Shown: piece after piece, positions 1,951 to 59,600 of the stretch
How the letters are laid out: each line of letters opens with the position of its first letter
Position numbering within the stretch: the first letter of the stretch is position 1
Position numbers and translations under genes: made by a program
Assembly: GCA_964188305.1 (NCBI GenBank)
Contig: OZ076898.1
Strand: one strand, 5' to 3'
Length of the DNA: 64,000 nt
Source of the DNA: Podarcis bocagei
Taxonomy: Eukaryota
Notes under the pieces: generated by a model
What the model saw: the letters and a program-made list of their open reading frames with translations, nothing else
The model's database searches: none
What the model was told of the DNA's origin: nothing

Positions 1951-3022
1951 AGGAACACGAGAACTCAGAGTTTTCAGCAAGAGAAACTGTGGCAGAGAAC
2001 AATGAGGCTGCGTACACGAGAGTGTTAATGCACATGTGGGTGCTCACTGTGATCAACTCCCACCTGGAAACCTATGTCCCCACTGTGGAAGGATGTGTGG
2101 AACCAGAATTGGCCTCCAATTACTTACAGAAACACAGTTAAAAACAATCTTACTTGACGATGAGTGGTTGCCAAAGAAGAGTCACACAGATTAATTTTTC
2201 CGTGTGAGCTTTTGTGCACATTCATTAACAAATGAGTGCTTTCAACTGAGTGCAATCTCAATGTTTCCCAGTGGGTGGTGCTTAATGGGATGTATTCACA
2301 CTGAGTGTTGTTGTCGCCTCCCCTCAACTAGTACTCCCCCAAGTTCCCAAAACCTGGTGTCCATTGTGGCCATGCACACGGGTATTTGTTTAGCTATGTG
2401 CATGGCCTTTTTATTTATCTCTTTGAGATGCAAGTTTTCCAATATAAAAATGTGTCAACGTTAGATCTGGGAAAGAGTTTTTGAGAAACAGCCTAGCTTT
2501 TTCTAAGTGCTTGCAAAGTTTTTGGCTGAATAACTTTCTTGTAAAGAATTTCATTTATTTGGAACAGTTAAATATTCTTGGCTAGTTTGCTTCTTTCTTG
2601 TTTTAGGGGATAGGCACTTCTTGGATGTCAGGTTGCTACTGTGGTATTTCAAGAGTACTCCCTAAGAACTCACAGGTGGACTTCCTAGAACCTTATCAGA
2701 GGTTCACAGAAAACAAATTTGGTAATGGAAGACAAAGACAGCTTGTTCACTGTTATATCTTCCATTTCAAGGAGCAACTTCAGGGAACTCTCTGTTTGCA
2801 CAGGGTAGCAGTCGCCTGGCGGGCTCCCTATATATGAACCAACAGCAGGTCTTAGAACATCCTTCCCCAACCTGCTACCCTCCTGATGTTTTGGACTACA
2901 ATTTCCAATAGCTCTAGCTAGCATGGCTGTGCTGGCTGAGGCTGAGGGGAGTGTTAGTCCAAAACATCAGCCGGGTACCAGGTTGAGAAGGCTGCCTTAG
3001 AATGTGCCCCAGAATCCTTTGC

Positions 3023-3945
3023 CCTAAGAGAAAATTTAATGAAAATGATTTATAGGTGGTACATGACACCAGTTAAGCTTGAAAAAATTTACCATTTGCC
3101 CGATAATAAATGTTGGAAATGTAATGAGACTGAAGGTACATTCTTTCACCTTTGGTGGACGTGCCCAAGGATTAAGACATTCTGGGAGATGATTTATAAT
3201 GAAATGAAAAAGGTATTTAAATATACCTTCCTTAAGAAACCAGAGGCCTTTATCCTGGGCATGGTCGGCCAATTGGTGCTAAAGAAGGATAGAACTTTTT
3301 TTATGTATGCAACAACAGCAGCAAGAATACTCATCGCGAAGTATTGGAAGACACAAGATTTACCCACCAGGGAAGAATGGCAGATGAAGTTGATGGACTG
3401 CATGGAATTGGCGGAAATGACTGGCAGAATCCGAGACCAGGGAGAAGAGTCGGTGGAAGAAGACTGGAAAAAGTTTAAAGACTATTTACAGAAATATTGT
3501 AAAATTAAGGAATGCTAGAAGAATGTTGGAATGAAGTGATATGGCTTTAGTAGAAAGGTTATAAGAAATTAAGTACAAATAGATTAATAGAGTATTAAAA
3601 GAAAAATAAGGTTGAAATGTGTTAAGATAATTATAGGCTAGGAAACAGGGGAAGATGGAAAGGAATTGCTGAAATAATTAATAGAAGTGGAATACAAAAA
3701 GGGAGGTGTGAGGAGGTCGTGGAAATATGTGAAAGAAAGATAAGACATTGAAATTTATTTATTTATTTTTCTTTTCCTTTCTTTGTTGATGTGTTTTTAA
3801 ATTGTTTTTGTTTTGTCTTGTTAGTTTAATGTTTTAGTGTAAGGTAGTGTCTTTGTATTGTAATGTATTGTTTTTTCTTTGGTTTTTTTTGTAGTGTTTA
3901 AATTGTTGTAAAAGCAATAAATATTATTTTTTAAAAAAAGAGAGA
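3023..3945 (+). mobile_element. 5'-truncated L1-clade LINE (ORF2 C-terminus plus 3' UTR), flanked by a 38-bp direct duplication
   Basis: ORF 3039..3518 contains the L1 ORF2 C-terminal Cys/His motif CWKCNETEGTFFHLWWTC and ARILIAKYWK. AATAAA at about 3916, then an A/AG tail. Duplication at 2985-3022 and 3946-3983. Confidence 0.85.
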
Positions 3946-5992: not shown

Positions 5993-8202
5993 TACTTCAG
6001 ACTCCAGGTGGGTGATATCATTTACGAAGTCTTCTCTGAACTTAACTGCAACAACCACCTCCCCCCTTGAGAAGAAAATTAGCACAGCAAAAGTGGTATC
6101 CACTTGAACCATTTTTCATTGTACTTGCTTGTTGGTTTACTTGCAGGAAATTCTTATACTCCACTCTAATACTTCAGGATTTTACCACCTCATGCTACTG
6201 CATTGATAGACAGGTATACTGTGAAGGAGCTAGGAGCTGGGATTTCTGGGTTTTCAGGAAGTAGCGACACTCCCATTTACTTTTAACTCACAGCTGTGAT
6301 GATGGAAAGAGGTTTTAATAGTCAAGACTCCTGGGTCTTCTGGAGGAAGAGTAGGGTCCAGCCCTACAGCAGGGAAGTAGACTCTCCTAGGTTCTTCGCA
6401 GAATTGCCACAAACAGACCTCTTACACTTTAAAAACTGCCTGAAAAATGAGCATTCAATGTGTGCATTTCTATACTGGGGAAGTGAGGAATGGAGGAAGC
6501 TGCACCTGTTCAATTTCTGCCTGTCACACAGGTTAAAGAGACAAAAATAAAATGGGGGGAAAAGTAAAAGTGAACCCACTCTTTCCAGAATAGTTAAAAT
6601 TAGAAAATGCCCTCAAAAACAACTATAGAGCTTGAAAGTATTTAACTATTCCACACTACCTGCCCCTCCCCGTCTTCTTTCCTCTTCGTTTCTGTGGTGA
6701 ATGGGCACAGTTCTCTCGTTCCTGGAGAAAAAGGAACTCTGCCCAGGAAAGTAGGGTGGCTACCAGAATGACGCAGGATGGGGATTAGGCCTGGTAGGTT
6801 GGCCTGAAGAGAGACTGTGGGACTGGACTCTCCTGGGTTTTGTTTCCCAGCTCTGTAGGTCTTCATCTGACTGCACATTCCATAGCACAAGACCCTTATC
6901 TCTTTGCTACACAAAGCCAGTGGCTGCTTGGGCTTCCCCTAGGCAGTTAATACATAACCTGTTTCCCTTTCTGTTGTTTTTTTATGGGAGATTAGCGCAA
7001 GGATTAAAATAACAGCACCTCCTACCTGCTGCCATCCCATGTTCCCTTAACAGATTAAAATGGCCCAAACTTGCCTCTCCTCAGCCACTGCTGTGAGTTT
7101 CTGCACAGCAGTATCCTCAGTCACATGCTGTCCACTTCTCCCTTAGCACAGCACCCATTGGGGGATTTATCCCTATTTTCTCTTTTCTCATCCAGTATCT
7201 TCCAGTCTCCCACTGGACTTGCACTTTTCATGTGCACCGCAGCACTCCCCCCCCTTATTTGTTCCCATCCAAGGGGCAACGGGTCTTGTTTACTCGTCTA
7301 GGAACAGAACATCTGGAGCAATTCGGCACTTAATTACCGCACTTGTCACCGGCATCACCACGGATACAGCGCACGGGAGGGGAGCCGGCCAAGAGGATGA
7401 GATAAATAGATTAGTGGGAGATGGAGAGGGGGAAAATAAATGGAAAAAAGAGGCCAGCAAACAGCATCCTATCTAAATAGTCGTTGTAGCCCAGATGTTG
7501 GGTGTTGCTTGACACCATGTAACAAATACCAGTTGAAGTCCCTCTCAGTCTCTCCAACCTAGAAAAACCCACCAGAACATTTTGCAGATAAGGTTCCCAT
7601 GCTGGCAATCAGAACTCACAACTGCTTCTGAATTCTCTGAAAAAGGAGATGGAATAGAGAGTTTTGGGGAAAGAGGGAGCCAATTAGATGCAGGACTCCT
7701 GGGAGCCAACTGGAAAGGACTACAGGAGAGGGAAAAGACTAGTGGGTGTCATGGAATTCTACTCATATTGATCCAGAGCAAGGCTCAACCCTGCTAAGTC
7801 TAAACCTTAATAGTAGGAGTCCTGGTTTCTTTGTGATTAGGCTTTGACCTGCTAGGTTAAGGCCTATCTCAAACTTTAAAAATCACCTGCCCACCTTTTC
7901 TACTTATTAGATCCTTTTTGTCTTCCCCCAACCCAGGAACCTAATTTGGTTTATCTGTCTGGTTCCTACATCCTTTGAGCTGCTTGTTCCCCACCTACCT
8001 GACTGCACACACCTCTACCATGTCGCCTCTGGCTCTGGCTCTCTTTCCCACATACATAACACCACCTGAAGTGAATGGACGGCCACATTTCTCCCTTTCA
8101 GCAACCCCACTGCAGTTGCAGCCCTTACTTTGGGAGGCTGAGATGGCTTATGGCAGGAGTGAAGAACTTTTTTTCAGAGGGCTGCATTCTCTTCTAGGTA
8201 GC

Positions 8203-8610
8203 TGTCAGGGAACTGCCATCAGAGCATCAGGTGGTGGAGGGACTCAGGCAGGATGAAAGAGACTCAACTGCTGAAGCAGGGACCAGCAGGGGGAGGAGTG
8301 GGTCTCTGAGGGAATGCGAGCAGGAGGGAGGGCTCAGGGAGGCTTCCAGCGAAAACAGTGGGGAGGTATCGGAGTCTCCCATAGGGAGACCCATACCTCG
8401 CAGGAAACTGTCACGCCGTGAGTCCAGGAGACGCGTTTCCGTTAAGGAACTTCTTTGTTGGAAACGCTTCCGCAGACAGCCACTGTCGGACTCTACTAGT
8501 GACTAGAGCAGACATGTCTGAGGAGCTCCGTCACACACGGAGGTTTGTGGGGGCGCACAAACTCTGAGGGAGCACGTTTTCACGCACAAGCAGCTAATCA
8601 AACCCTCACA
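8203..8610 (+). repeat. 5' LTR (408 bp)
   Basis: No difference from 13265-13672 found by eye. Starts TGTCAGGG, ends CCCTCACA. Confidence 0.96.
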
Positions 8611-8612
8611 GC

Positions 8613-8623
8613 AGTCCGACAGT
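8613..8623 (+). promoter_or_regulatory. Self-priming primer-binding site (Tf1-type)
   Basis: AGTCCGACAGT lies 2 nt after the 5' LTR and is the exact reverse complement of ACTGTCGGACT at 8482-8492 inside the LTR. There is no TGG-starting tRNA-type PBS. Confidence 0.85.
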
Positions 8624-8655
8624 CTTTGTACGCTGCCTGTGCAAGAGAAGGCATC

Positions 8656-9669
8656 ATGAGCGAACCAACCGGAACCGGAGGAGCAGGGGCTGGAGCTGGT
8701 CCAAGCTTGGAAGATAGATACCGAGCGTTGGAGGTTCAACTGGCCCTGCAGACGGCGAGGCTGGAGGAGAGAAGGGCTCAGGATGCAGACAAGAAGGGGA
8801 GAGCCACTCAATTCCCCAGAAAGGTACCAGGATTGGTGCAGAAATTTGGGGGGGACCCCAAGGACTACCATGCTTTTAGGACAGAGATGCAATATGCCCT
8901 TAATGTGCAGTTCGATGAGTTCCCTGATGAGGAATCGCGAGTTGCTTTTGTAATTGGGCATCTTGAGAAAGGGGCTAGAGACTGGGTGCGACCCCTAATG
9001 GCAACGCACAATGACATACTAAAGGACACAATGAAGTTCTTTCGTGCAATGGATATCATGTTTTCCAGCGATATTGAGGAAGGGGTGGTGCGCAGACAGC
9101 TAATGGCTTGTAAGCAGGGGAGTCAATCTGTCCGTGAATATTGGACTGAGTTTACCATGCTGATTCACAGACTGAGTTGGGATTTATCGGCGGCACCCGT
9201 TCAAATGCTATTTGAAGAAGGTCTTTCTTCGGGGGTGAAAGACGAGCTGGCACGGAGCCCCAGGGCGGAGTCTATGGATCAGCTGACCAAATCTGCGCTG
9301 ACCATAGGAGCGCGGCAGGAGGCAAGAGCCTTGGAGAGGCGGGAAGGGAGAGGGGAACGTTGGAAGGAGTTCCGCATTCCAGACATTCCTGAGCCAGCTT
9401 TCCCGCCGGCAGAGCCGATGGAAATCGGAACAGCGCGCGCGCGCGCATTTTCAAAAACCAGCGAGGGAGCTAAGAAGGAGGGAAAGGGCCCCCGGAAATG
9501 CTATCTCTGCCAACAGCCAGGCCACTTTGCCAGAGTCTGCCCCCAGAGGAAGGAATGGCAAGGGATGGTGGGAGCTGTTGAGGGGGGAGAAGAAGGGGGA
9601 GCGGAGCAGGTAAAAGCCAACGCCTGGTTGCCACAATTGGGGCACTGCAGCCAGGCCAAAGAGCAGTGA
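8656..9669 (+). CDS. gag: Gag (capsid-like domain plus CCHC zinc knuckle), about 337 aa
   Basis: First in-frame ATG after the PBS (MSEPTG...) within track ORF 8545..9669. Retrotransposon-gag-type core (KFGGDPKDYHAF...KQGSQSVREYWTEF), EPMEIG motif and knuckle CYLCQQPGHFARVC. Confidence 0.92.
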   Translation: MSEPTGTGGAGAGAGPSLEDRYRALEVQLALQTARLEERRAQDADKKGRATQFPRKVPGLVQKFGGDPKDYHAFRTEMQYALNVQFDEFPDEESRVAFVIGHLEKGARDWVRPLMATHNDILKDTMKFFRAMDIMFSSDIEEGVVRRQLMACKQGSQSVREYWTEFTMLIHRLSWDLSAAPVQMLFEEGLSSGVKDELARSPRAESMDQLTKSALTIGARQEARALERREGRGERWKEFRIPDIPEPAFPPAEPMEIGTARARAFSKTSEGAKKEGKGPRKCYLCQQPGHFARVCPQRKEWQGMVGAVEGGEEGGAEQVKANAWLPQLGHCSQAKEQ

Positions 9670-12600
9670 AAGTGCCCGTGCCAGAAGCTCCTCGACCTGC
9701 TCTAGTGATTGAAGTGTCGCTAGAGCTGCAGAATGGGCACCCCCTAAAAATAAAGGCGCTATTGGACTCAGGCAGCTCCTGCAATTTTATGAGCAAGGAG
9801 TTTGTTGCTGAACACCAGATACAGACCATCCCTTTAAGCAACCCCCTGCAGGTGACCACGATTGATGGCAGGGAGTTGTTGGGAGGAGGAGTCCGCTTGC
9901 AGACTGTCCCAATGATAATGAGGGTGGCAAGGCACACAGAACTGATAGCGTTTAATGTGGCCACCCTGGGAGGCGCTCCCATTATTTTGGGAATGAGCTG
10001 GCTAGCTCTACATGATCCGCTGGTTGGCTGGCATCAAAGAGTGGTGTCCTTTGGTTCAGCACATTGCCTAGAACACTGCAAAGGGGAGAAGGGTTCAGTA
10101 GGGGCCCAAGCCACCCTAGCAGGGACTGAAGTAATGGGAAAGGTGAAGGTACCACCACAGTATGCAGATCTCAGCGACGTGTTCAGCGAGAAGGAAGCTG
10201 ACCAACTACCACCTCATAGACCCTTTGATTGTCAGATCAATTTACTCCCTGGAGCACAGCTTCCCGTGGGCAAGTTGTATGCCATGTCAGACAGGGAAAT
10301 GCAGGAGTTGCGAGGGTTCATTGACAAGAACCTGAAGAGAGGCTTCATCAGAGAGTCCAAAGCAGCAGGGGGGAGCCCAGTGTTCTTTGTGGACAAAAAA
10401 AATGCGGACAAGCCGAGACTTGTATGTGATTTTAGGCGGCTGAATGCAGTGACTGAACCGGTGGCGTTCCCTATGCCCAGAATTGATGATATTTTGACCA
10501 TGGTGAGGAAGGGAAAGATTTTCACAAAGCTGGATCTAAGGGGGGCGTACAACCTGATACGCATAAGGAAAGGGGATGAATGGAAAACCACCATGTTTAC
10601 CCCTTTGGGGGCGTTTGAATACCTCGTTATGCCATTTGGATTACAAGCAGGCTCCGCGTGTTTTCAATCTTTTATGAACCACGTGCTGGGCCCTTTGCTC
10701 TACAAGAATTGCGTTGCCTTTCTAGATGATGTGTTGGTGTATTCTGAGAATGAGGAGCAACATGTGAGAGACGTCAGAGAAGTGTTGAGCAGACTGCAAG
10801 CCAACAGGCTGTGGGTCAAACTGGAGAAGTGTCGGTTCCATACCAAGGAGGTGGAATTCCTGGGGTACCGCCTGTCAGACAAGGGATTGGCCATGGATCC
10901 CGGCAAGGTACAGGCAGTGCTGGAATGGAAAACACCCAAAACCAAGAAGGATGTGCAGAGGTTCCTAGGGTTTGGAAACTTTTATCGTAAGTTCATCCGC
11001 AACTTCGCCCATCTGACGGCGCCCATCACTGACTGTCTCAGCAGTAAGAAGAAGTTTGTATGGACGGCGGAGGCGGGGCGAGCGTTTGAGGAACTGAAAA
11101 GGGCCTTCGCCTCTGAAGAACAACTTCTGCATGTGGATTTACGAAAGAAGCTAAGGGTTGAAACAGACGCATCTGACAGAGCCATAGGGGCGGTGCTTCT
11201 TCTGCAGCCGGGGAAGGAGGAGTCGGAGTGGCGTCCGTGTGCCTTCTTCTCGCGGAAGCTGAACAAATCCGAGAGGAACTACACGGTGTACGACCGAGAA
11301 CTGCTGGCTATTCATGAGGCGTTCCGGAGATGGAGGCATCTGCTAGTTGGTGCACAACATAAAGTGCAAGTGTGCACGGACCATAAAAATCTAGAGTACT
11401 GGAGAACGGCGCGAGTGCTCAACCAAAGGCAGTTGAGATGGGCCCAAGAGTTCTCCAAATTTAACTTTGAGATTTGTTATGTGCCAGGCCCAGAGAATGT
11501 TAGGGCGGACGCTCTCTCACGCAAGCCTGAATATTTGGAGGGGGAGGGAGCACCCGAAGAAACCCATATCATTCCAGAGGACCGCTGGGTGTGTGGGGCG
11601 ACTTTGGTGGGGCAAAGGGAATTGGTAGAGGGTACGGTGCAGGATGCATACGCCCAGGGGAAACTCAGGGATCTCAGAGGGGAGGAAGACAAACCCGGTG
11701 GTTTTGAGGAGAGAAATGGGGCATTGTATTATAAGGGAGCGTTATATATACCTGAAGGGGAATTGAGGGAGAAAGTACTCAAGCAGCTGCACGATAGCCC
11801 CACAGCAGGGCACTTTGGGCAACACAAAACCATGTGGCTGGTTACCAGGGAATTTTGGTGGCCCAAGGTCAGGGAAGATGTGCGGGAGTATGTGAGAGGG
11901 TGTGAACAATGCCAAAGAGCCAAGGGGGAGAGGCAGGCGCCGGCTGGTTTATTAGAACCACTGCCCACACCTGAGAGACCGTGGGAAGCAGTGGCAATAG
12001 ATTTCATGACTGATCTGCCAAGGTCTAGAGGGAAAACAGCCATCATGGTTGTAGTAGACCTGTTAACTAAAATGGCCCACTTCATAGCCTGCTCACATGC
12101 GGTTACAGCAGAAGAAACCGCCAAATTGTTTGTAGAGAATGTGTTTAGGTTGCATGGCGCCCCCTTGAGGGTGGTTTCAGACCGAGGGAAACAATTTACT
12201 TCCAGGTTCTGGAGGAAGCTCATGAGCTTACTGCATGTAGAGGTTAATTTCTCGACGGCCCGTCATCCTGAAACCAACGGGCAGGCGGAAAGAGCAAATG
12301 GGGTTCTCCAACAATATTTGAGGTGTTATGTTAATGACAGAGAGAATGATTGGGTGGAGAAGCTGGCGTTGGCAGAATTTGCCTACAACAATGCAGAGAA
12401 CGTGTCCACGGGGATGAGCCCCTTTTTGGCTAATCACGGGTGCCATCCCAGAGCCTTCCCAGGGGGGGAGGGGGAGAACTGGAGCGTTCCAGCTGCAGAA
12501 CAGTTCGTGGAAGAAATGGAAGCGATCCATCGCCAGCTCCAACTCAACTTAAACAGGGCTAAGGAGGAATATAAGAGGCAAGCAGACAAAAACAGAAGGG

Positions 12601-13568
12601 AAGGTGAAAGCATCAGGGTGGGGGACCAGGTGTGGCTGTCAACCCAAGGGTTGCCATTCAAAGGAGGTTGTAAGAAATTAAGACCCAAAAGGCTGGGTCC
12701 GTTTGAAGTCATACAGCAGGTCAATCCAGTGGCTTTCAGGCTCCGGTTACCGAACCACATGAAGCTGCACCCAGTTTTTCACAGGTCGTTGCTGTCACCG
12801 TATAGAGGAGACAGTGAGGGGAGGGTCACTAGGGGACCAGCAATGGAGGAGAAGGAACACAGCTACCATGTAGCGGAGATCCTCGATTCCAGGTGGAAGG
12901 GAGATCAAGTAGAGTATTTGGTAATGTGGGAAGGGGAACCGGAGTCGGAAAACACCTGGGTTAGGGCAGAGGATGTCAATGACGAGGTTTTAATAGAGAC
13001 TTTTCATCAGAGGTTCCCACGTAAACCTCAGCCTGTAGCGAGGTTCCGAAGGGAATACTTTGCCACCACCGACGAGGAAGAGGAGTTGGAGGGGTTCCCA
13101 GATTCTGAAGAGGAGGAGGATTCAGCTGGCCAGGACGACGATCGATGGAGAGAATTGTTCGAGACGTCAGAAGATGAGGAAGATTCGTTTCGGGGTTTTA
13201 GCCCTTCACCTCCCAGGGGGGAGGAATTGGGAGGGGGTGAGGGGGGCCCTGGAGGGGAGGTGGATGTCAGGGAACTGCCATCAGAGCATCAGGTGGTGGA
13301 GGGACTCAGGCAGGATGAAAGAGACTCAACTGCTGAAGCAGGGACCAGCAGGGGGAGGAGTGGGTCTCTGAGGGAATGCGAGCAGGAGGGAGGGCTCAGG
13401 GAGGCTTCCAGCGAAAACAGTGGGGAGGTATCGGAGTCTCCCATAGGGAGACCCATACCTCGCAGGAAACTGTCACGCCGTGAGTCCAGGAGACGCGTTT
13501 CCGTTAAGGAACTTCTTTGTTGGAAACGCTTCCGCAGACAGCCACTGTCGGACTCTACTAGTGACTAG
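9582..13568 (+). CDS. pol: Pol polyprotein (protease-RT-RNase H-integrase-chromodomain-acidic/basic tail), -1 frame relative to gag
   Basis: Frame open from 9582 (after TGA at 9579) to TAG 13566-13568. Protease ALLDSGS; RT LDLRGAY, VMPFGL, AFLDDVLVYS; RNase H VETDASD; integrase HHCC (LHDSPTAGH...CEQC), DDE (IDF/SDRG/AERAN), GPF motif; chromodomain YHVAEILDSR...YLVMWEG...ENTW. Confidence 0.96.
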   Translation, partial: GGRRRGSGAGKSQRLVATIGALQPGQRAVKVPVPEAPRPALVIEVSLELQNGHPLKIKALLDSGSSCNFMSKEFVAEHQIQTIPLSNPLQVTTIDGRELLGGGVRLQTVPMIMRVARHTELIAFNVATLGGAPIILGMSWLALHDPLVGWHQRVVSFGSAHCLEHCKGEKGSVGAQATLAGTEVMGKVKVPPQYADLSDVFSEKEADQLPPHRPFDCQINLLPGAQLPVGKLYAMSDREMQELRGFIDKNLKRGFIRESKAAGGSPVFFVDKKNADKPRLVCDFRRLNAVTEPVAFPMPRIDDILTMVRKGKIFTKLDLRGAYNLIRIRKGDEWKTTMFTPLGAFEYLVMPFGLQAGSACFQSFMNHVLGPLLYKNCVAFLDDVLVYSENEEQHVRDVREVLSRLQANRLWVKLEKCRFHTKEVEFLGYRLSDKGLAMDPGKVQAVLEWKTPKTKKDVQRFLGFGNFYRKFIRNFAHLTAPITDCLSSKKKFVWTAEAGRAFEELKRAFASEEQLLHVDLRKKLRVETDASDRAIGAVLLLQPGKEESEWRPCAFFSRKLNKSERNYTVYDRELLAIHEAFRRWRHLLVGAQHKVQVCTDHKNLEYWRTARVLNQRQLRWAQEFSKFNFEICYVPGPENVRADALSRKPEYLEGEGAPEETHIIPEDRWVCGATLVGQRELVEGTVQDAYAQGKLRDLRGEEDKPGGFEERNGALYYKGALYIPEGELREKVLKQLHDSPTAGHFGQHKTMWLVTREFWWPKVREDVREYVRGCEQCQRAKGERQAPAGLLEPLPTPERPWEAVAIDFMTDLPRSRGKTAIMVVVDLLTKMAHFIACSHAVTAEETAKLFVENVFRLHGAPLRVVSDRGKQFTSRFWRKLMSLLHVEVNFSTARHPETNGQAERANGVLQQYLRCYVNDRENDWVEKLALAEFAYNNAENVSTGMSPFLANHGCHPRAFPGGEGENWSVPAAEQFVEEMEAIHRQLQLNLNRAKEEYKRQADKNRREGESIRVGDQVWLSTQGLPFKGGCKKLRPKRLGPFEVIQQVNPVAFRLRLPNHMKLHPVFHRSLLSPYRGDSEGRVTRGPAMEEKEHSYHVAEILDSRWKGDQVEYLVMWEGEPESENTWVRAEDVNDEVLIETFHQRFPRKPQPVARFRREYFATTDEEEELEGFPDSEEEEDSAGQDDDRWRELFETSEDEEDSFRGFSPSPPRGEELGGGEGGPGGEVDVRELPSEHQVVEGLRQDERDSTAEAGTSRGRSGSLRECEQEGGLREASSENSGEVSESPIGRPIPRRKLSRRESRRRVSVKELLCWKRFRRQPLSDSTSD
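9609..9677 (+). promoter_or_regulatory. Predicted -1 programmed ribosomal frameshift cassette (slip site G_GTA_AAA, 6-nt spacer, H-type pseudoknot)
   Basis: Heptamer 9609-9615 is in gag phase. Stem 1 GCCTGGTTGC (9622-9631) pairs with GCAGCCAGGC (9647-9656), one G-U pair. Stem 2 GGGCACT (9640-9646) pairs with AGTGCCC (9671-9677). Confidence 0.75.
13251..13264 (+). promoter_or_regulatory. Polypurine tract (PPT)
   Basis: GGAGGGGAGGTGGA immediately 5' of the 3' LTR. Confidence 0.75.
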
Positions 13569-13672
13569 AGCAGACATGTCTGAGGAGCTCCGTCACACAC
13601 GGAGGTTTGTGGGGGCGCACAAACTCTGAGGGAGCACGTTTTCACGCACAAGCAGCTAATCAAACCCTCACA
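13265..13672 (+). repeat. 3' LTR (408 bp), first 304 nt overlapped by the pol ORF
   Basis: Direct repeat of 8203-8610, preceded by a purine-rich PPT and followed by the GTAGC TSD. Confidence 0.96.
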
Positions 13673-14502
13673 GTAGCCTTATGAGGACTGCATGCCAGAG
13701 GTGGGGATGGGGCTACAAGCAAAAGTGGACAGAACAATTAATGTTAATTTTACCTTTGTGCAGTAAGCTTGTGCTTATGTCCACTCAAATGTCCCTCTCT
13801 ATCTTCCACTGAGATAAGCAAGAAGCATTATTAGGGTTCAAGGACATATTGCATCCAGGCCAAAACACCCAAGGAGGGTGCAAAGAAGGGCTAGTGAAGG
13901 GTGTGGCCCGGGGGGCTGTATCCTGACAACCAGATAAAGATGCCTGGAGGGCCACATTCAGATCCTGGGACGAAGGTTTCCCATTCCTGGTGTATAGGCA
14001 CAGTAAGAAGTCACAGAAAATTGAATGTTGTGCCATTCCCCTTCCCCCACCCCCTGCTTTTTCATATTTTCTTAGGAGAGGCTGAGAATAAGGAACATAA
14101 GAACACAAGCCTGTAAGAACAAGCCAATGGCCCATCTAGTCCAGCATTCTGTTTGCGCAGTGCCTGACCAGATGCCTGGGGGGAAGCTTGCAAGCTGGAC
14201 ATGAGCGCAACAGCACTCTGCCCACCTGCGGTTCCCAGCAAGTGGGATTAGAGGTATAATGAGAACAGAAAGGCAGGTTCCTCTGGAAAGAAATCCTTGT
14301 TGGTTAGAGAGATGGGAAACATTGGGAGCCAGGATTCCTGTTTGTAAACAAGCAGGTTTGCCACCTTTTTTCTTTTCTTGCAGGGCTCCTGTCACGTAAC
14401 AGGCACAAGTTCAATAAATGCTGCCTTTTCCTGTATGGAGCTGCCCTACTGGCATATACCTAACCTGTTGCCTTCACGCTGACTTTAAAAAAAAGGCACA
14501 GC

Positions 14503-36878: not shown

Positions 36879-39800
36879 ATGGAGGAGCCCAGCACATGGG
36901 ATGAGCCGAGCAGCGGCTCCAGTAGCAGCAATGAGGAGGATGAGGACATGGAAATGGAGGAGAAGGCTAAAGAAGAAGAGAAGGGTCGAGGGGGAGCTTA
37001 TGTGCCAGGACAGGGGGCCCCTCCAGCACCTGGGGAAGAACTGGTGATGGACGAGGGTGCCTATCGCCTCTATCATCGCGCAGGCACAGGTCAGATCATG
37101 TATTGGAAGGAGGGGGGGTCTGTCTTTTTGGACTGGAAAGGAAAGGGACGCTTGCTAAGGTGAACGGGAAAGGATTCCAAAATTGTAGACAGGGAGGAAT
37201 GGAGGTGGGAATTTGTCAGGGTATAGATGCATTGGTTCTTCGACGTGGGCCACACGGGTTAGTTTGGTTGTATAGGCGAGCCCTGACTCCTAAAGACCTC
37301 AGCCACAAATATTATGGGAATGTGGCATGGCATGTGATGAGTGGCTGTAGGTTAGGAGCGTCCTTTAGGGGCCAGAAGATATGGGGTATGTGTGTATATA
37401 TATATGTGTGTGTATATATATGATAGGTTTAAAGCGACAAGGGGTATGCACTGAACCTCATTTGTAGCAAACCCATGACCTCTTAATTCTCACCAGCCAC
37501 GTTGGTAAAGTTGCAAGAGCTGTGGCTAAATAGTAAGATTCAAAATAGATTCCACTGCATGTTTTTGCACAAAGTTAGTAATTGTGAGTACAGAACTAGA
37601 AGCTGAGGGCTGTGCCGGACCTCCTGTTGTACTATTTATATCAAAAAGGTGAAACAACTATTAAAAACACAAAGCAATTTCAGCATAAACATTTCTGGCA
37701 GAAAGGCCTAAAACTAAATCCGCAGTAAATTTACATACCACCATGTGTTGCATATGTGTATACGTTAAGATACGAACAATTGTTTGCATACGGCAAGGAC
37801 TGTAAATCAACGTGATGAAGAAAACTCACAGTAGATATGGGGCAAAGAGGGGCATTGCCACAGAAAGGAATGCTGATGTCCCTGTGTCTCCTTCGACCCT
37901 GTGCAGGTTCCCCTTGCTTGAGCTTTGACATTTTGCGAGATGCTCTTGGAGAGAATCGAACCACCTACCCGCTGAGCCTTCTCCTTTGTGCTGGAACTCA
38001 GGCTGAAACTGCCAATGCCAACAGGTGAGTTTGTGAGGAGCTTGGCTTCCAGCAAGCCAGCTACACTGAAGCCAGGACAAGAGGGCCTGTGGCAGGGATG
38101 TGGGACCCCTGGCCTTCGCTTGTTAGACTCAGCTTTGCGGTCAGTTGTCGGGAATGCTGGGAACTGTAGTTCCCACCATCTGGAGGGCCAGAGGTTCACC
38201 ATCCTTGAAAACACCTGCTTATAGACCACTGAAATGTCTCCTTTTCTCTCCCCCACTCCCTGCAAATAGGCTGATGGTGATGAAGATGCACCACCTCTAT
38301 GGGACCAAACGTGCTGGCAAGGATTCTTCAGGGTCAGAGAGTAGCAGCGACAGTGAAAGTGATGAAGACGAAGAGAAAAAGCCCCAATTGGAACTGGCCA
38401 TGGTCCCCCATTATGGGGGTATTAACAGAGTTCGGGTACGAAACCATATTCCTGCTGGTCTCTCACTCTGCTCTGGCAAAGTTCTCTACCTTAATGGTCT
38501 GTTGTTGTTTTGATAGGTGACAGAATTGGGTGGATCACAGATCGCAGCGGTTTGGTCTGACAAGGGGCAGGTGGACATATACGACCTACAGCGCCCCCTC
38601 GTGGCCCTGTCCGACTCTCAAGCCATGGCAGCCTTTCTGCGAGAAGAGCAGGCCAAGATCAAACCTGTCTTCTCATTCGCTGGGCATATGACGGAAGGAT
38701 TTGCTATGGACTGGTCTCCCAAGAAACCAGGTAATCAGCTGGGATGGAACAGGAATGGAGTTGGCAGAGCTGGGAACAGGAGACCTGGACCGGCGGGACC
38801 GCAGTTCAGAATAACTTGTACCTTACCTATTCCAGGGACTCTTTTGACTGGTGATTGCAACAAGAACATCCATCTGTGGACACCCAAGGAAGATGGATCA
38901 TGGCTTGTAGACCAGCGGCCTTTCACAGCCCACACTGCGTCAGTTGAAGACCTGCAGTGGTCCCCAAATGAAGCTACAGTGAGGAAGTGGTTTGATGGGT
39001 GCAGCTTGCTTTACAGTGAAAATTTCTGAGCTTGGGGAAATGTTAATGTGCTTCCTAGTTACCTGGGACTTAATCAAAGTGTTTCAAATCAGCTAAGGCT
39101 GCATTTTTTATTTTTTAAAAAGGCAGTTGCCTATTATTTCTCTTGCATATGCTTGGCCACAAGGTTGGTTTAATGGAATCTGAAATCAGATAGGCCTTGA
39201 TTTGTATTTTTAAAAAGGATATAATCGAAGACCAGATCCTGGTGTCAGGTGAAGTTTTCCTTTGCAGGTGGGCTTGAATTTAAGCTGGTATTGTACAGCA
39301 AAAATGTTCCTTTGCCCCCAGTTTTCCTTTCCTCACATGCTTTGAAATCAAGAATTTCCCTTTATGCTGCCTTTGCGGTTTGAAACCAAACTGTCTGGGC
39401 AAAAGAAGCAGGTCTTGTTGTCAGTTGCAGCTGCAAGCCCCACTTTCCTTAGGGGTTGGCTCTACTTGAAGTTCCTGAGTGGAATCAATTCCAGGGTGGC
39501 TTGCATTTGCCACTACATTTCAAAGGAATTGAATGTAAGCCCTGCTTGTCAAAGAACAACTCCTGATCCTCTGCAGCTATATTTTTACTTGCACCCAGCT
39601 TGATAAGACATCGGGTGGGGATTTCTTAGGGGTGGGGACTGCCTTACAGGGGCCATATTAAGACCCCAGCCAGGCCTAATGCTATGCTCTGCCTTTGCAG
39701 TCAGAGGTAGTGATGATTCTGACTACCAGTTGCTGCAAACCACAGGAAAGTGCTCTGGTTCTGCTTGCAGGCTTTTCATAGGCATCTGACTGGCCACAGG

Positions 39801-56600: not shown

Positions 56601-59600
56601 CTAGTGTTGCAGGATGGATTACAACAACAAAAGCACAGTGTTAAAAATATACACCTCAAATGTCAAAAGCCAAGGTAAAGAGGTGTATCTTTAGCATTTG
56701 CCGAAAGCTGCATAAAGAAGATGCCAGACACACCTCTACAGAGAACAATTCATTAAAGAATAATGAATAGTTCATTAATATTTACAGCCTTTTATCTGTT
56801 TCTCCCCTCTCACACACCAGGGCCTGTCACTACCTGACACTTGGCTGGACCTTTTCCTACCTGCTCTTTTTCCGCACAATCGCCTACTTTGGCTTCCCAG
56901 AGCCAACACCTTTCACCAATGCCGTGCAGCTCTTACTCACTCTCAAGGTAAGAGGGGCTGCGCTTTGGACGGGGGTGTGGGGAAGGGGCTCCCTAGGAAG
57001 CTCATTTCCCATGATGCCTTAATCTGTGTCTCCCAGATGGTGAGCTTAGCCAACGAAGTACAAGAACTCACTTGGGCGAAGAAACAGGATGTGACATCAT
57101 TTGCCAAGAGTCCACTGATTGGCGTGATCCCTAAAATGCCCGGACTGGTGGAGATACTGTGCTACAGTTATTGCTATGTTGGGCTCATGACAGGTACCTG
57201 AGTTACCTAACAGAAAGCAGTAGTCAAACTGGGTAGGGTGAAATATGTGTACAGCACCAAATTCTAGAGATGGGTTTGTCATGGTTACCACAGCTTTAAT
57301 CTGTATCCCTTCACCAAAATATGAAAATTGATGACAGGAGACAGAGGGCCTGGGGGTTCCCATTTTCTGTTTCAGTTTTCTTTTGAAGAGAGAGCAAGAT
57401 AAGAGATAAGAACAGAAAGTCCAAAGAACCAAGCATATTTCACCTTTGCCTGTTGTTCTAATCGTCACAGCTGCTGACTTTTGGTTTTTTGTTTTGTGGC
57501 ATGATTGTGTGTGCGTGTGTGTATCCGTAGTAGCACCAGCATGCCTCTGACCCTTGGTGTTTATGGAAATAATATGCCTTTCTTCCTCTCTCCATTCATT
57601 ATCTTTGTGTGTCTTTCCAGTTCATGTGTGGTAACGTTGATTGTTCTTTCCTTTTCTGCTTTGTGAGAACAGCACGAAAATATCCCAACGCTACTTCTGC
57701 GACAGATAATGAGGGCTTGGAATGAACGCTGAGATCCTGCAGGTTCTGCTTATGGCACCAGATCCCGTGAGAAGACATAGGGCTAGGCTACAGGGCGCAT
57801 CAGACTCTTACCCAGCACCCAAGCTACACATCCTCTTAAGACTGAAGTTATTAAGATGTGTGGTTGCATGAGAGGCTTTTGTGTGTCTTGGTTTTTCTGA
57901 GGAACAATTCATTTCTGTCTGCTCGTTGATCTCAATTTCTTTTTTCTTTTCTTTTCTTTTGCACCTAGGCCCGTTTTTTCGCTACCGCACTTACCACGAT
58001 TGGCTGAACCAGCCTAACTCCACAATCATCCCTAGCTGGAAACCGCTGCTTTCGAGAATGAAAATGATCCCCATCTTTGGGGTCTTTTTCCTGGTGGCAT
58101 CTCACTTCTTCCCCCTCCAATATGTCCGGAGCGACGCCTTCTACGAACAGGGACTTCTGTTCCGAATCTTCTACATGATACCCATCTTCTTCGTCTTCCG
58201 CATGCGCTTCTATGTCGCCTGGCTCTGCGCTGAATGCGCCTGCATTTCTGCTGCCTTCGGTGCCTATCCAACCACCGCCAAATCACGGTCAGGCGGTGGG
58301 CCCACTGTGGAATATGTGCCGATCAGCAGGTTAGTCAAGGAGATGTTCCCTGTCTGCAGTAGAAGATGGGCTAGATTTAGAGAATGGCATGGAACTGTCC
58401 TGCCCCCAGAAGGCAAGGTGTCATATTCTGACACATATACAGTCTTCAAGGGTAGCCCAATGTAGAGAGCACTGCAGTAGTCAATTCATGAGGGCGTTAA
58501 GATGTTCTTGTTTTGTTCACATTTCTAAAGCAACTCAGATGAAGGGGGAGCGTCCAGCATCACCTATGATTATGAGACAATCAAGAACATTGATCCACAT
58601 GGCACTGACTTCTGTGTCAAGGTGAAGGATGGCATGCGCTACTGGAACATGACTGTCCAATGGTGGTTGGCGCAGTACATTTACAAAAGCGCACCCGTCC
58701 GGTCCTATGTCTTAAGGTGAGCAAAGCAGTACCATTGGGGGGTATGGGGGAGATAGCCTGTTGGGGTGGATTGGTGTGAAGGTGGACTCTGAGGTTCTGA
58801 GATCAATTGCAGGGAAGGTTCTTCTGGGAACAGCCAGTAAAGAGGATTCTGGGATACGTGGTTGGTTGATTTGAAGACAGGTAGAGTAGAGAAATGCAAG
58901 CATGAGGGGGAGTAGCAGAAATATGCAGGTGAGTTAGGTGAGCAGTAGTGAGTAAAGAACTAAATGTTGAGCCAAAAATATTATTGCAACCTTGGATGGT
59001 GCAGTGGAACATTCTGGAATACAGTGGTACCTCGGGTTACATATGCTTCAGGTTACATAAGCTTCATGTTACAGACTCCTCTAACCCAGAACCCCATTAG
59101 CTAATGTGGTGCTTCAGGTTAAGAACAGTTTCAGGTTAAGTACGGACCTCCAGAATGAATTAAGTACTTAACCCGAGGTACCACTGTACAGTGGTACCTC
59201 TGGTTGCGAACAGGATCTGTTCTGGAGGTCTGGCTGTATCCCAGAGTTTTTGCAACTGGAGAGACCGCTTCTGTGCATGCACACACGGCGGTAGAACGCT
59301 TCTGCTCATGCGCAAGCGGCGAAACACTTGCGGGCTTGCCGCTTTCGGAACCTGAAGTTTACGTTACCCGAGGGTAACATAACGCGAAGTTCCACTGTAG
59401 ATGGAAAAAGCAAGGCAGTTGGCATGAAAGACTATGGAATGGTGGGAGTTGGTATATTCCCCCCCCCCACCTGCTTCAGTCATCACCTGAGTCCCTCCAA
59501 GAGTTGCCCTCAAGGGCTTAAGGGCCCAGTCACAAGTCTTTCCCCCATGTTGTCAACCTAAGAGGGCAGGGCTGTGGATGCAGCAGGGTCCAAACGAACC

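Follow-up and report, generated by a model that had tools for sequence, protein, structure and literature searches.

A squamate chromovirus with a Pol frame open through the PPT and U3 of its 3' LTR and a putative LEDGF/HRP2-binding integrase tail

Why should the Pol frame of a retrotransposon remain open after its chromodomain, cross the PPT and terminate only within the predicted R region of its own 3' LTR? This question is raised by a complete LTR element located on the (+) strand at positions 8203–13672 of a 64,000-nucleotide stretch of Podarcis bocagei DNA, which is hereafter called the window. Its 408-nt LTRs have TG...CA ends and 0 differences between them; the 5' copy (8203–8610) is directly preceded by the TSD GTAGC at 8198–8202 and the 3' copy (13265–13672) is followed by the same 5 bp at 13673–13677. 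The gag frame (8503–9669, stop to stop, with Retrotrans_gag/Ty3_capsid and zf-CCHC) is continued in −1 register by the pol frame (9582–13568, stop to stop), which codes for protease, RT, RNase H, integrase, SH3, chromodomain and a 184-aa tail, the Pfam matches being ordered as protease, RT, RNase H, H2C2, rve, SH3_Tf2-1 and Chromo. In the chromodomain at 12864–13013 (PF00385, E 1.5e-11, above the cut-off) the third aromatic-cage position is occupied by E (W-E-G-E). Within the gag/pol overlap (9582–9669, −1 frame) a GC-rich stretch that looks stem-forming follows GGTAAAAGCC, and one copy of a third family, described below, has a single frame of 1889 codons.

The PBS at 8613–8623 (+) is complementary to the predicted RNA 5' end and is the exact reverse complement of positions 13544–13554 (+) in the 3' LTR. 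The latter was taken as the predicted start of R and self-primer copy, the RNA start site being placed by the Tf1 mechanism, where the same pairing between RNA 5' end and PBS is described (PMC4600332). PBS and primer copy do pair in the MFE fold of the predicted leader (8482–8640), the z-score of the whole fold being only −0.74, and the two halves co-vary in sister families. Judged by its domain order, chromodomain and self-priming PBS, the element is a Tf1/sushi-type Ty3/Gypsy chromovirus (Metaviridae). With the vertebrate chromoviruses of this type it shares the order PR-RT-RH-IN, the SH3/GPF module, the chromodomain, the 11-nt self-priming PBS and the 5-bp TSD (PMC4600332), and it differs from them in the 184-aa tail and in a chromodomain lacking the third cage aromatic. 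Its closest relatives by Pol are Podarcis muralis proteins, and the closest named ones are squamate and fish proteins.

The Pol frame is open for 1328 codons and ends at TAG 13566–13568. The chromodomain ends at residue 1144, and the remaining 184 residues cross the PPT and 304 of the 408 nt of the 3' LTR (13265–13568), i.e. all of U3 and 25 nt of the predicted R, so that the stop codon stands 25 nt past the predicted RNA start. A preliminary description of this DNA had counted about 100 residues encoded by the LTR with no stop after the chromodomain, and both the frame and the LTR coordinates agree with that count; it had also correctly read the PPT, the TG att end and the self-primer copy as coding. 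The purine-rich PPT region (13230–13264 (+), GGGEGGPGGEVD) shows a dN of 0 in 15 of 15 pairs, the TG of the att end falls across two codons, D and V, of V-D-V-R, and the primer copy at 13544–13554 lies within the codons of P-L-S-D-S. The first part of U3 (13266–13460 (+)) codes for a Ser/Glu/Gly-rich spacer whose sequence and in-frame length both vary; it is followed by a strongly basic end motif (13461–13538 (+), RRKLSRRESRRRVSVKELLCWKRFRR), and translation and charge pattern are as initially claimed. No Pfam domain was matched by the tail, nothing useful was found for its acidic and basic parts among PDB sequences, and the ESM Atlas search gave no usable match. A 17-codon ATG-led ORF after the stop was dropped as a candidate, since it is not retained in a distant family. 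Since U3 is present in genomic RNA at the 3' end alone, it can act as promoter in the 5' copy and as coding sequence in the 3' copy, which makes the overlap possible.

The initial statement that Gypsy pol normally stops before the PPT proved to be overstated. In plants, CRM group A and several Beta chromoviruses, including Bingo of Beta vulgaris, have an ORF that reaches into the 3' LTR (PMC3059260, PMC3605345), and the likeness to nef and sag proposed earlier is a poorer comparison, these being separate accessory genes. In CRM group A and Bingo, as here, the Pol ORF crosses the PPT and the 3' LTR codes for a putative targeting part (PMC3059260, PMC3605345). However, CRM group A comprises tRNA-Met-primed centromeric elements of plants with a CR motif replacing the chromodomain, whereas the lizard element in the window is self-priming, has its chromodomain upstream of the PPT and has all of U3 coded; no sequence likeness was found between its tail and CRM or Bingo. 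No report of an LTR/Pol overlap in vertebrate chromoviruses was found, in the full-text literature searched, including the available part of PMC3601003; an earlier mention in older chromovirus papers or Repbase-type records is possible. What is seen here is a known arrangement in a vertebrate element, with all of U3 included.

In dinucleotide shuffles the 300 LTR-coded nucleotides remained open in 3.9% of cases, and the 531 nt from the chromodomain to the stop in 0.34%. The open frame of one copy is therefore only moderately unlikely, and family comparisons have to decide. A 38-nt family marker that lies upstream of the LTR matches the genome exactly at 459 places (0 for the reversed control), and all 3' flanks were different in the 59 family copies read (59/59). 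Since the marker is independent of the LTR, the sample it gives is unbiased for the state of the tail. On two contigs (C1 and C2) 65 matches were registered: 36 copies have a 234-aa end identical to that of the window, among the remaining 29, 27 read on to the same stop, and the two broken ones carry different single-base indels in the G-runs of the PPT. Thus, the tail is open in 63 of 65 copies, and neither a stop before the LTR in most family members nor a frameshifting U3 was observed. The element is young and currently amplifying. A contig of run X9 joins position 8197 to 13673 as an empty site, with the 5-bp TSD ambiguous (side of 25 nt), which fits a recent or polymorphic insertion. Run X1, whose RNA nature is only a guess, has even coverage of the element with its tail and none of the unique flanks; it was discarded as expression evidence, because high-copy DNA would look alike.

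Sister subfamilies and a second family (45–50% tail identity) were gathered by tail-protein searches, which bias the sample to in-frame copies; from 86 loci 72 3' LTRs were parsed, some of them being the same place fetched twice or duplicates on contig C19. The U3 lengths of 71 LTRs (one was mis-parsed) fall into five classes of 279 (37 LTRs), 285 (2), 306 (18), 309 (2) and 324 nt (12), the differences being always multiples of 3. The stop stands 25 nt past the primer start in 66 of the 72, six older copies having premature stops, and the LTR boundaries were confirmed by paired LTRs and by the co-varying primer and PBS of the sisters. The position of the stop is fixed though its codon varies (TAG/TGA/TAA), and the two other sense frames carry 2–9 stops in most representatives.

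The dN/dS ratios of the window copy against five sisters were 0.00–0.06 for the integrase core, 0.07–0.13 for the chromodomain, 0.12–0.27 for the acidic region and 0.17–0.30 for U3, with 0.25–0.54 in its spacer and 0.03–0.08 in the basic motif; nowhere in the LTR-coded region is the constraint stronger than in this motif. In closer sister pairs the U3 ratio climbs as high as 0.50; the spacer seems to be almost neutral, some pairs having values close to 1. In the basic motif, codons for Arg, Leu and Ser vary freely (dS up to 1.1) while the amino acids stay the same; one example pair has 11 synonymous against 2 replaced codons in 31. Since these codons change freely at silent sites, it is the protein and not the promoter sequence that is constrained. 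The 60 non-coding nucleotides after the stop also show third-position excess (7/10, 10/18) and make an unclean control, and the antisense frame 13265–13540 (−), which shares the wobble positions of Pol, is open for 91 codons, with 0–1 stops in all parsed representatives. It is likely a shadow of Pol codon use; as a selected frame it was rejected, having a lower synonymous share in 6 of 6 usable pairs (the mis-parsed row L111 was dropped). Amino acids that stay fixed while their codons change are explained neither by the post-stop excess nor by the antisense frame. The tail is under protein-level selection and is not the product of a leaky stop; very probably it works as a functional protein. 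The deliberate integrase extension suggested at the outset is borne out by the 63 open copies, the in-frame U3 lengths and the synonymous excess. Protein constraint on U3 in these families affects LTR dating, as well as annotation that treats LTRs as non-coding. Non-coding R/U5 (13569–13672) shows a third-position excess of differences in the continued Pol register, and the main length classes of this region (117, 126 and 129) are likewise multiples of 3.

A third family (P0155, about 45% identity) was found with a query lying wholly upstream of the LTR. Its LTRs are about 740–830 nt long, and in 10 of 16 the Pol frame is open for 613–703 nt through an S/E/G spacer to RRKEQRKRWSKARVLNW, whose spacing is identical, residue for residue, to that of SRRESRRRVSVKELLCW (E-x-R-[KR]-R...L-x-W). 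The four U3 lengths (591/648/678/681) are all multiples of 3, and the stop lies about 21 nt past the family's own self-primer. This family is older, and the G-runs of the PPT are crossed without loss of frame in only 1 of 9 copies. Its many stop-bearing copies on C19 were considered as an amplified tail-less subfamily and rejected as such: 13 of 14 share one flank and are therefore segmental duplicates of one dead insertion. C19 is a 96-Mb contig with dozens of near-identical copies of older sister families, and the copies checked share flanks; we infer that segmental duplications abound on it, as could be expected of a W chromosome. A query with the tail of P0005 found no match in this genome.

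What this protein might do is suggested by two acidic motifs preceding the PPT, RREYF-ATTDEEEE-LEGF at 13047–13097 (+) and WRELF-ETSEDEEDS-FRGF at 13146–13199 (+). The acidic motifs that had been paired initially with the basic tail were left unnamed; they stand, and they fit the TND-interacting motifs (TIMs) that bind the integrase-binding domain (IBD) of LEDGF. As defined in PMC9987994, a TIM consists of a helix, an acidic linker of 8–16 aa with CK2 sites and an optional FxGF; for LEDGF and HRP2 the FxGF is uniquely important, and all their known partners possess it, JPO2 among them. The linkers of the window motifs, 8 and 9 residues long and rich in D/E/S/T, are within this range. The anchors W-x-x-x-F and F-x-x-x-x-F are conserved at the sequence level, the helices themselves being putative. 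W, F and S-F-R-G-F of motif 2 are invariant in 12 of 12 aligned copies with 38–79% identity; motif 1 has L for the first F (LEGF) in the family of the window and FVGF or FEGF in a sister family. The x of FxGF may be R, V, E, L or Q, with F, G and F constant. Host motifs of this kind (CDCA7L/JPO2, KMT2A, IWS1, POGZ) are likewise built of a helix ending in F, an acidic S/T-rich linker of 8–10 aa and FxGF, and CDCA7L also has two in tandem, which in the lizard protein read LADIF-NTPSDDED-FLGF and LREIF-REDTESENEA-FEGF. In contrast to host TIMs, the motifs are found here in the integrase of a mobile element, their binding is predicted, and motif 1 has LxGF in the window's family.

The resemblance was assessed with a gapped helix/linker/FxGF profile that had seen only 65 segments of host CDCA7L in training and was run on 156 element proteins (102,819 aa). 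The window motifs scored 29.1 and 23.0, i.e. ranked 1 and 5; the top 12 matches (16.6–29.1) all belong to the tails of this lineage, the next best one having 12.7. Sampled host self-scores were 30.7–41.0, and none of 3000 tail shuffles reached 29.1. A plain local HMM of the host segments separated poorly (−0.2 and −1.3 for the window motifs, the best value of 9.5 coming from a sister), and among the profiles tried only the gapped-linker one separates the window motifs. With the motif 2 profile none of the LEDGF-TIM fusion chains present in the PDB was returned at E<=10. Complex prediction without alignments for the lizard LEDGF domain (P0158 400–492) and motif 2 (34 aa) gave 0.17 and 0.24 against a mark of 0.34, peptides being outside the tested use of that tool. 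The host does have a LEDGF-domain gene, an exon of which is 99% identical to Podarcis muralis PSIP1. Readings of VSVKELL as PIP-box, EH1 or LxxLL were abandoned, as these motifs are broken in distant families. That the acidic motifs are of TIM type and would bind a TND seems more likely than not. In the full-text literature searched, including the available part of bioRxiv 10.1101/624023, no description of a retrotransposon integrase with a TIM/FxGF motif was found.

The chromodomain itself deviates in the same lineage. By the definition of the aromatic cage in PMC3059260, the three-aromatic set of type I, the H3K9me reader, is incomplete: E takes the third position in the window and the first is also lost in sisters. 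Out of 155 relatives, 116 had a readable cage. The TIM-like motif, sought with a regex drawn from the window's own motifs, occurs in 7 of the 10 whose cage is degenerate and in 0 of the 106 whose cage is intact, an association that probably reflects one evolutionary event. In the majority of the relatives returned the cage is intact and the tail is short or AT-hook-like, and 27 of the 116 carry an AT-hook-like motif instead. Eight relatives (P0026, P0030, P0032, P0048, P0049, P0056, P0076 and P0115; two are named as fish) have AT-hook-like RPRGR, a G-rich stretch and V, then 8–30 aa closing in S/P-P/S-x-Y/F. Judging by these ends at the protein level, relatives of the RPRGR type probably have a shorter read-through of PPT and LTR with a conserved end.

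One can assume, on the basis of sequence features, the following scheme, for and against which the chances seem evenly balanced: the selected tail would be a targeting module that combines a LEDGF/HRP2 tether with an LTR-coded basic helix. Translated within Gag-Pol via a −1 frameshift and retained on the mature integrase, the tail would bind the integrase-binding domain of LEDGF/HRP2 by its two TIM-type motifs, with affinity raised by CK2-type phosphorylation of linker S/T. The PWWP domain of LEDGF/HRP2 would then bring the integration complex to H3K36-methylated, transcribed chromatin, and the tether would replace the H3K9me-reading role of the worn chromodomain. The LTR-coded basic helix, with clusters of net +7 within 20 aa, could provide nuclear import or chromatin/DNA contact; an NLS or a nucleic-acid binder is a plausible reading of this composition. 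The broader proposal, that a squamate Gypsy lineage swapped an H3K9me-type chromodomain for a pair of LEDGF/HRP2 motifs and an LTR-coded basic helix and uses the tether of HIV by mimicry, with hundreds of its present insertions directed into transcribed genes, is tentative, and a real gene-body bias of insertions is conceivable but somewhat doubtful.

Lentiviral integrases are tethered by LEDGF (PMC9987994), and the element is predicted to reach transcribed chromatin through the host domain that they use. According to PMC10854676, HIV-1 IN contacts LEDGF by a prearranged folded site and cellular partners by an unstructured motif; unlike HIV-1 IN, the window element would copy the cellular motif. 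Ty1 integrase also has a short host-binding motif and a basic NLS in its disordered C-terminus, but Ty1 belongs to the Copia superfamily and binds AC40 of Pol III, and LTR coding is unreported for it in the available text (PMC7459421). If the proposal is true, the LEDGF/HRP2 tether, so far tied to lentiviruses, is used by an amplifying endogenous retrotransposon of vertebrates. Targeting would then have converged by another molecular means, namely a linear motif taken over from host partners, and this would bear on the site choice of vertebrate chromoviruses once the chromodomain cage decays.

The tail might, on the other hand, be selected mainly for nuclear import and general binding of DNA or nucleosomes, with the acidic part as counter-charge and FxGF serving another partner, transcription or silencing. 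This is a serious reading, although we regard it as rather unlikely. The basic motif is indeed the strongest constraint in the LTR-coded region, basic ends without FxGF occur in the squamate relatives P0011 and P0020, AT-hook-like RPRGR stands at the tail position in fish relatives, and Ty1 integrase has a C-terminal NLS (PMC2490736); but two invariant helix-linker-FxGF units with host-like spacing, and the restriction of FxGF to cage-less chromodomains, would remain unexplained. Improbable is also a variant in which the motifs bind other TNDs and tie the integrase to elongating or promoter-proximal Pol II. Such domains are present in TFIIS, ELOA, IWS1, MED26 and PNUTS. TIM helices and acidic linkers do bind several TNDs with varying selectivity, but FxGF, as described in the same source, is special to LEDGF and HRP2 (PMC9987994). 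Finally, a passive by-product of a purine-rich, T-poor U3, conserved owing to promoter or RNA signals or the antisense frame, would agree with the share of open shuffles, the nearly open antisense shadow, the excess past the stop and the near-neutral spacer of some pairs, but it is very improbable and largely refuted by the silent variation under fixed amino acids, the five U3 length classes here and four in the distant family, the stops in the other sense frames and the constant location of a varying stop codon.

None of 136 ORFs flanking the insertion gave a Pfam match, and no host exon was found around it. Elsewhere in the window, a 186-codon ORF at 2958–3518, which has no Pfam match and lies in a repeat of high copy number by read depth, is probably the 3' end of a LINE ORF2. 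Exons of the host that match WD40 and MBOAT are located at 38517–39029 and 57872–58465; they presumably belong to genes like GRWD1 and MBOAT7, respectively.
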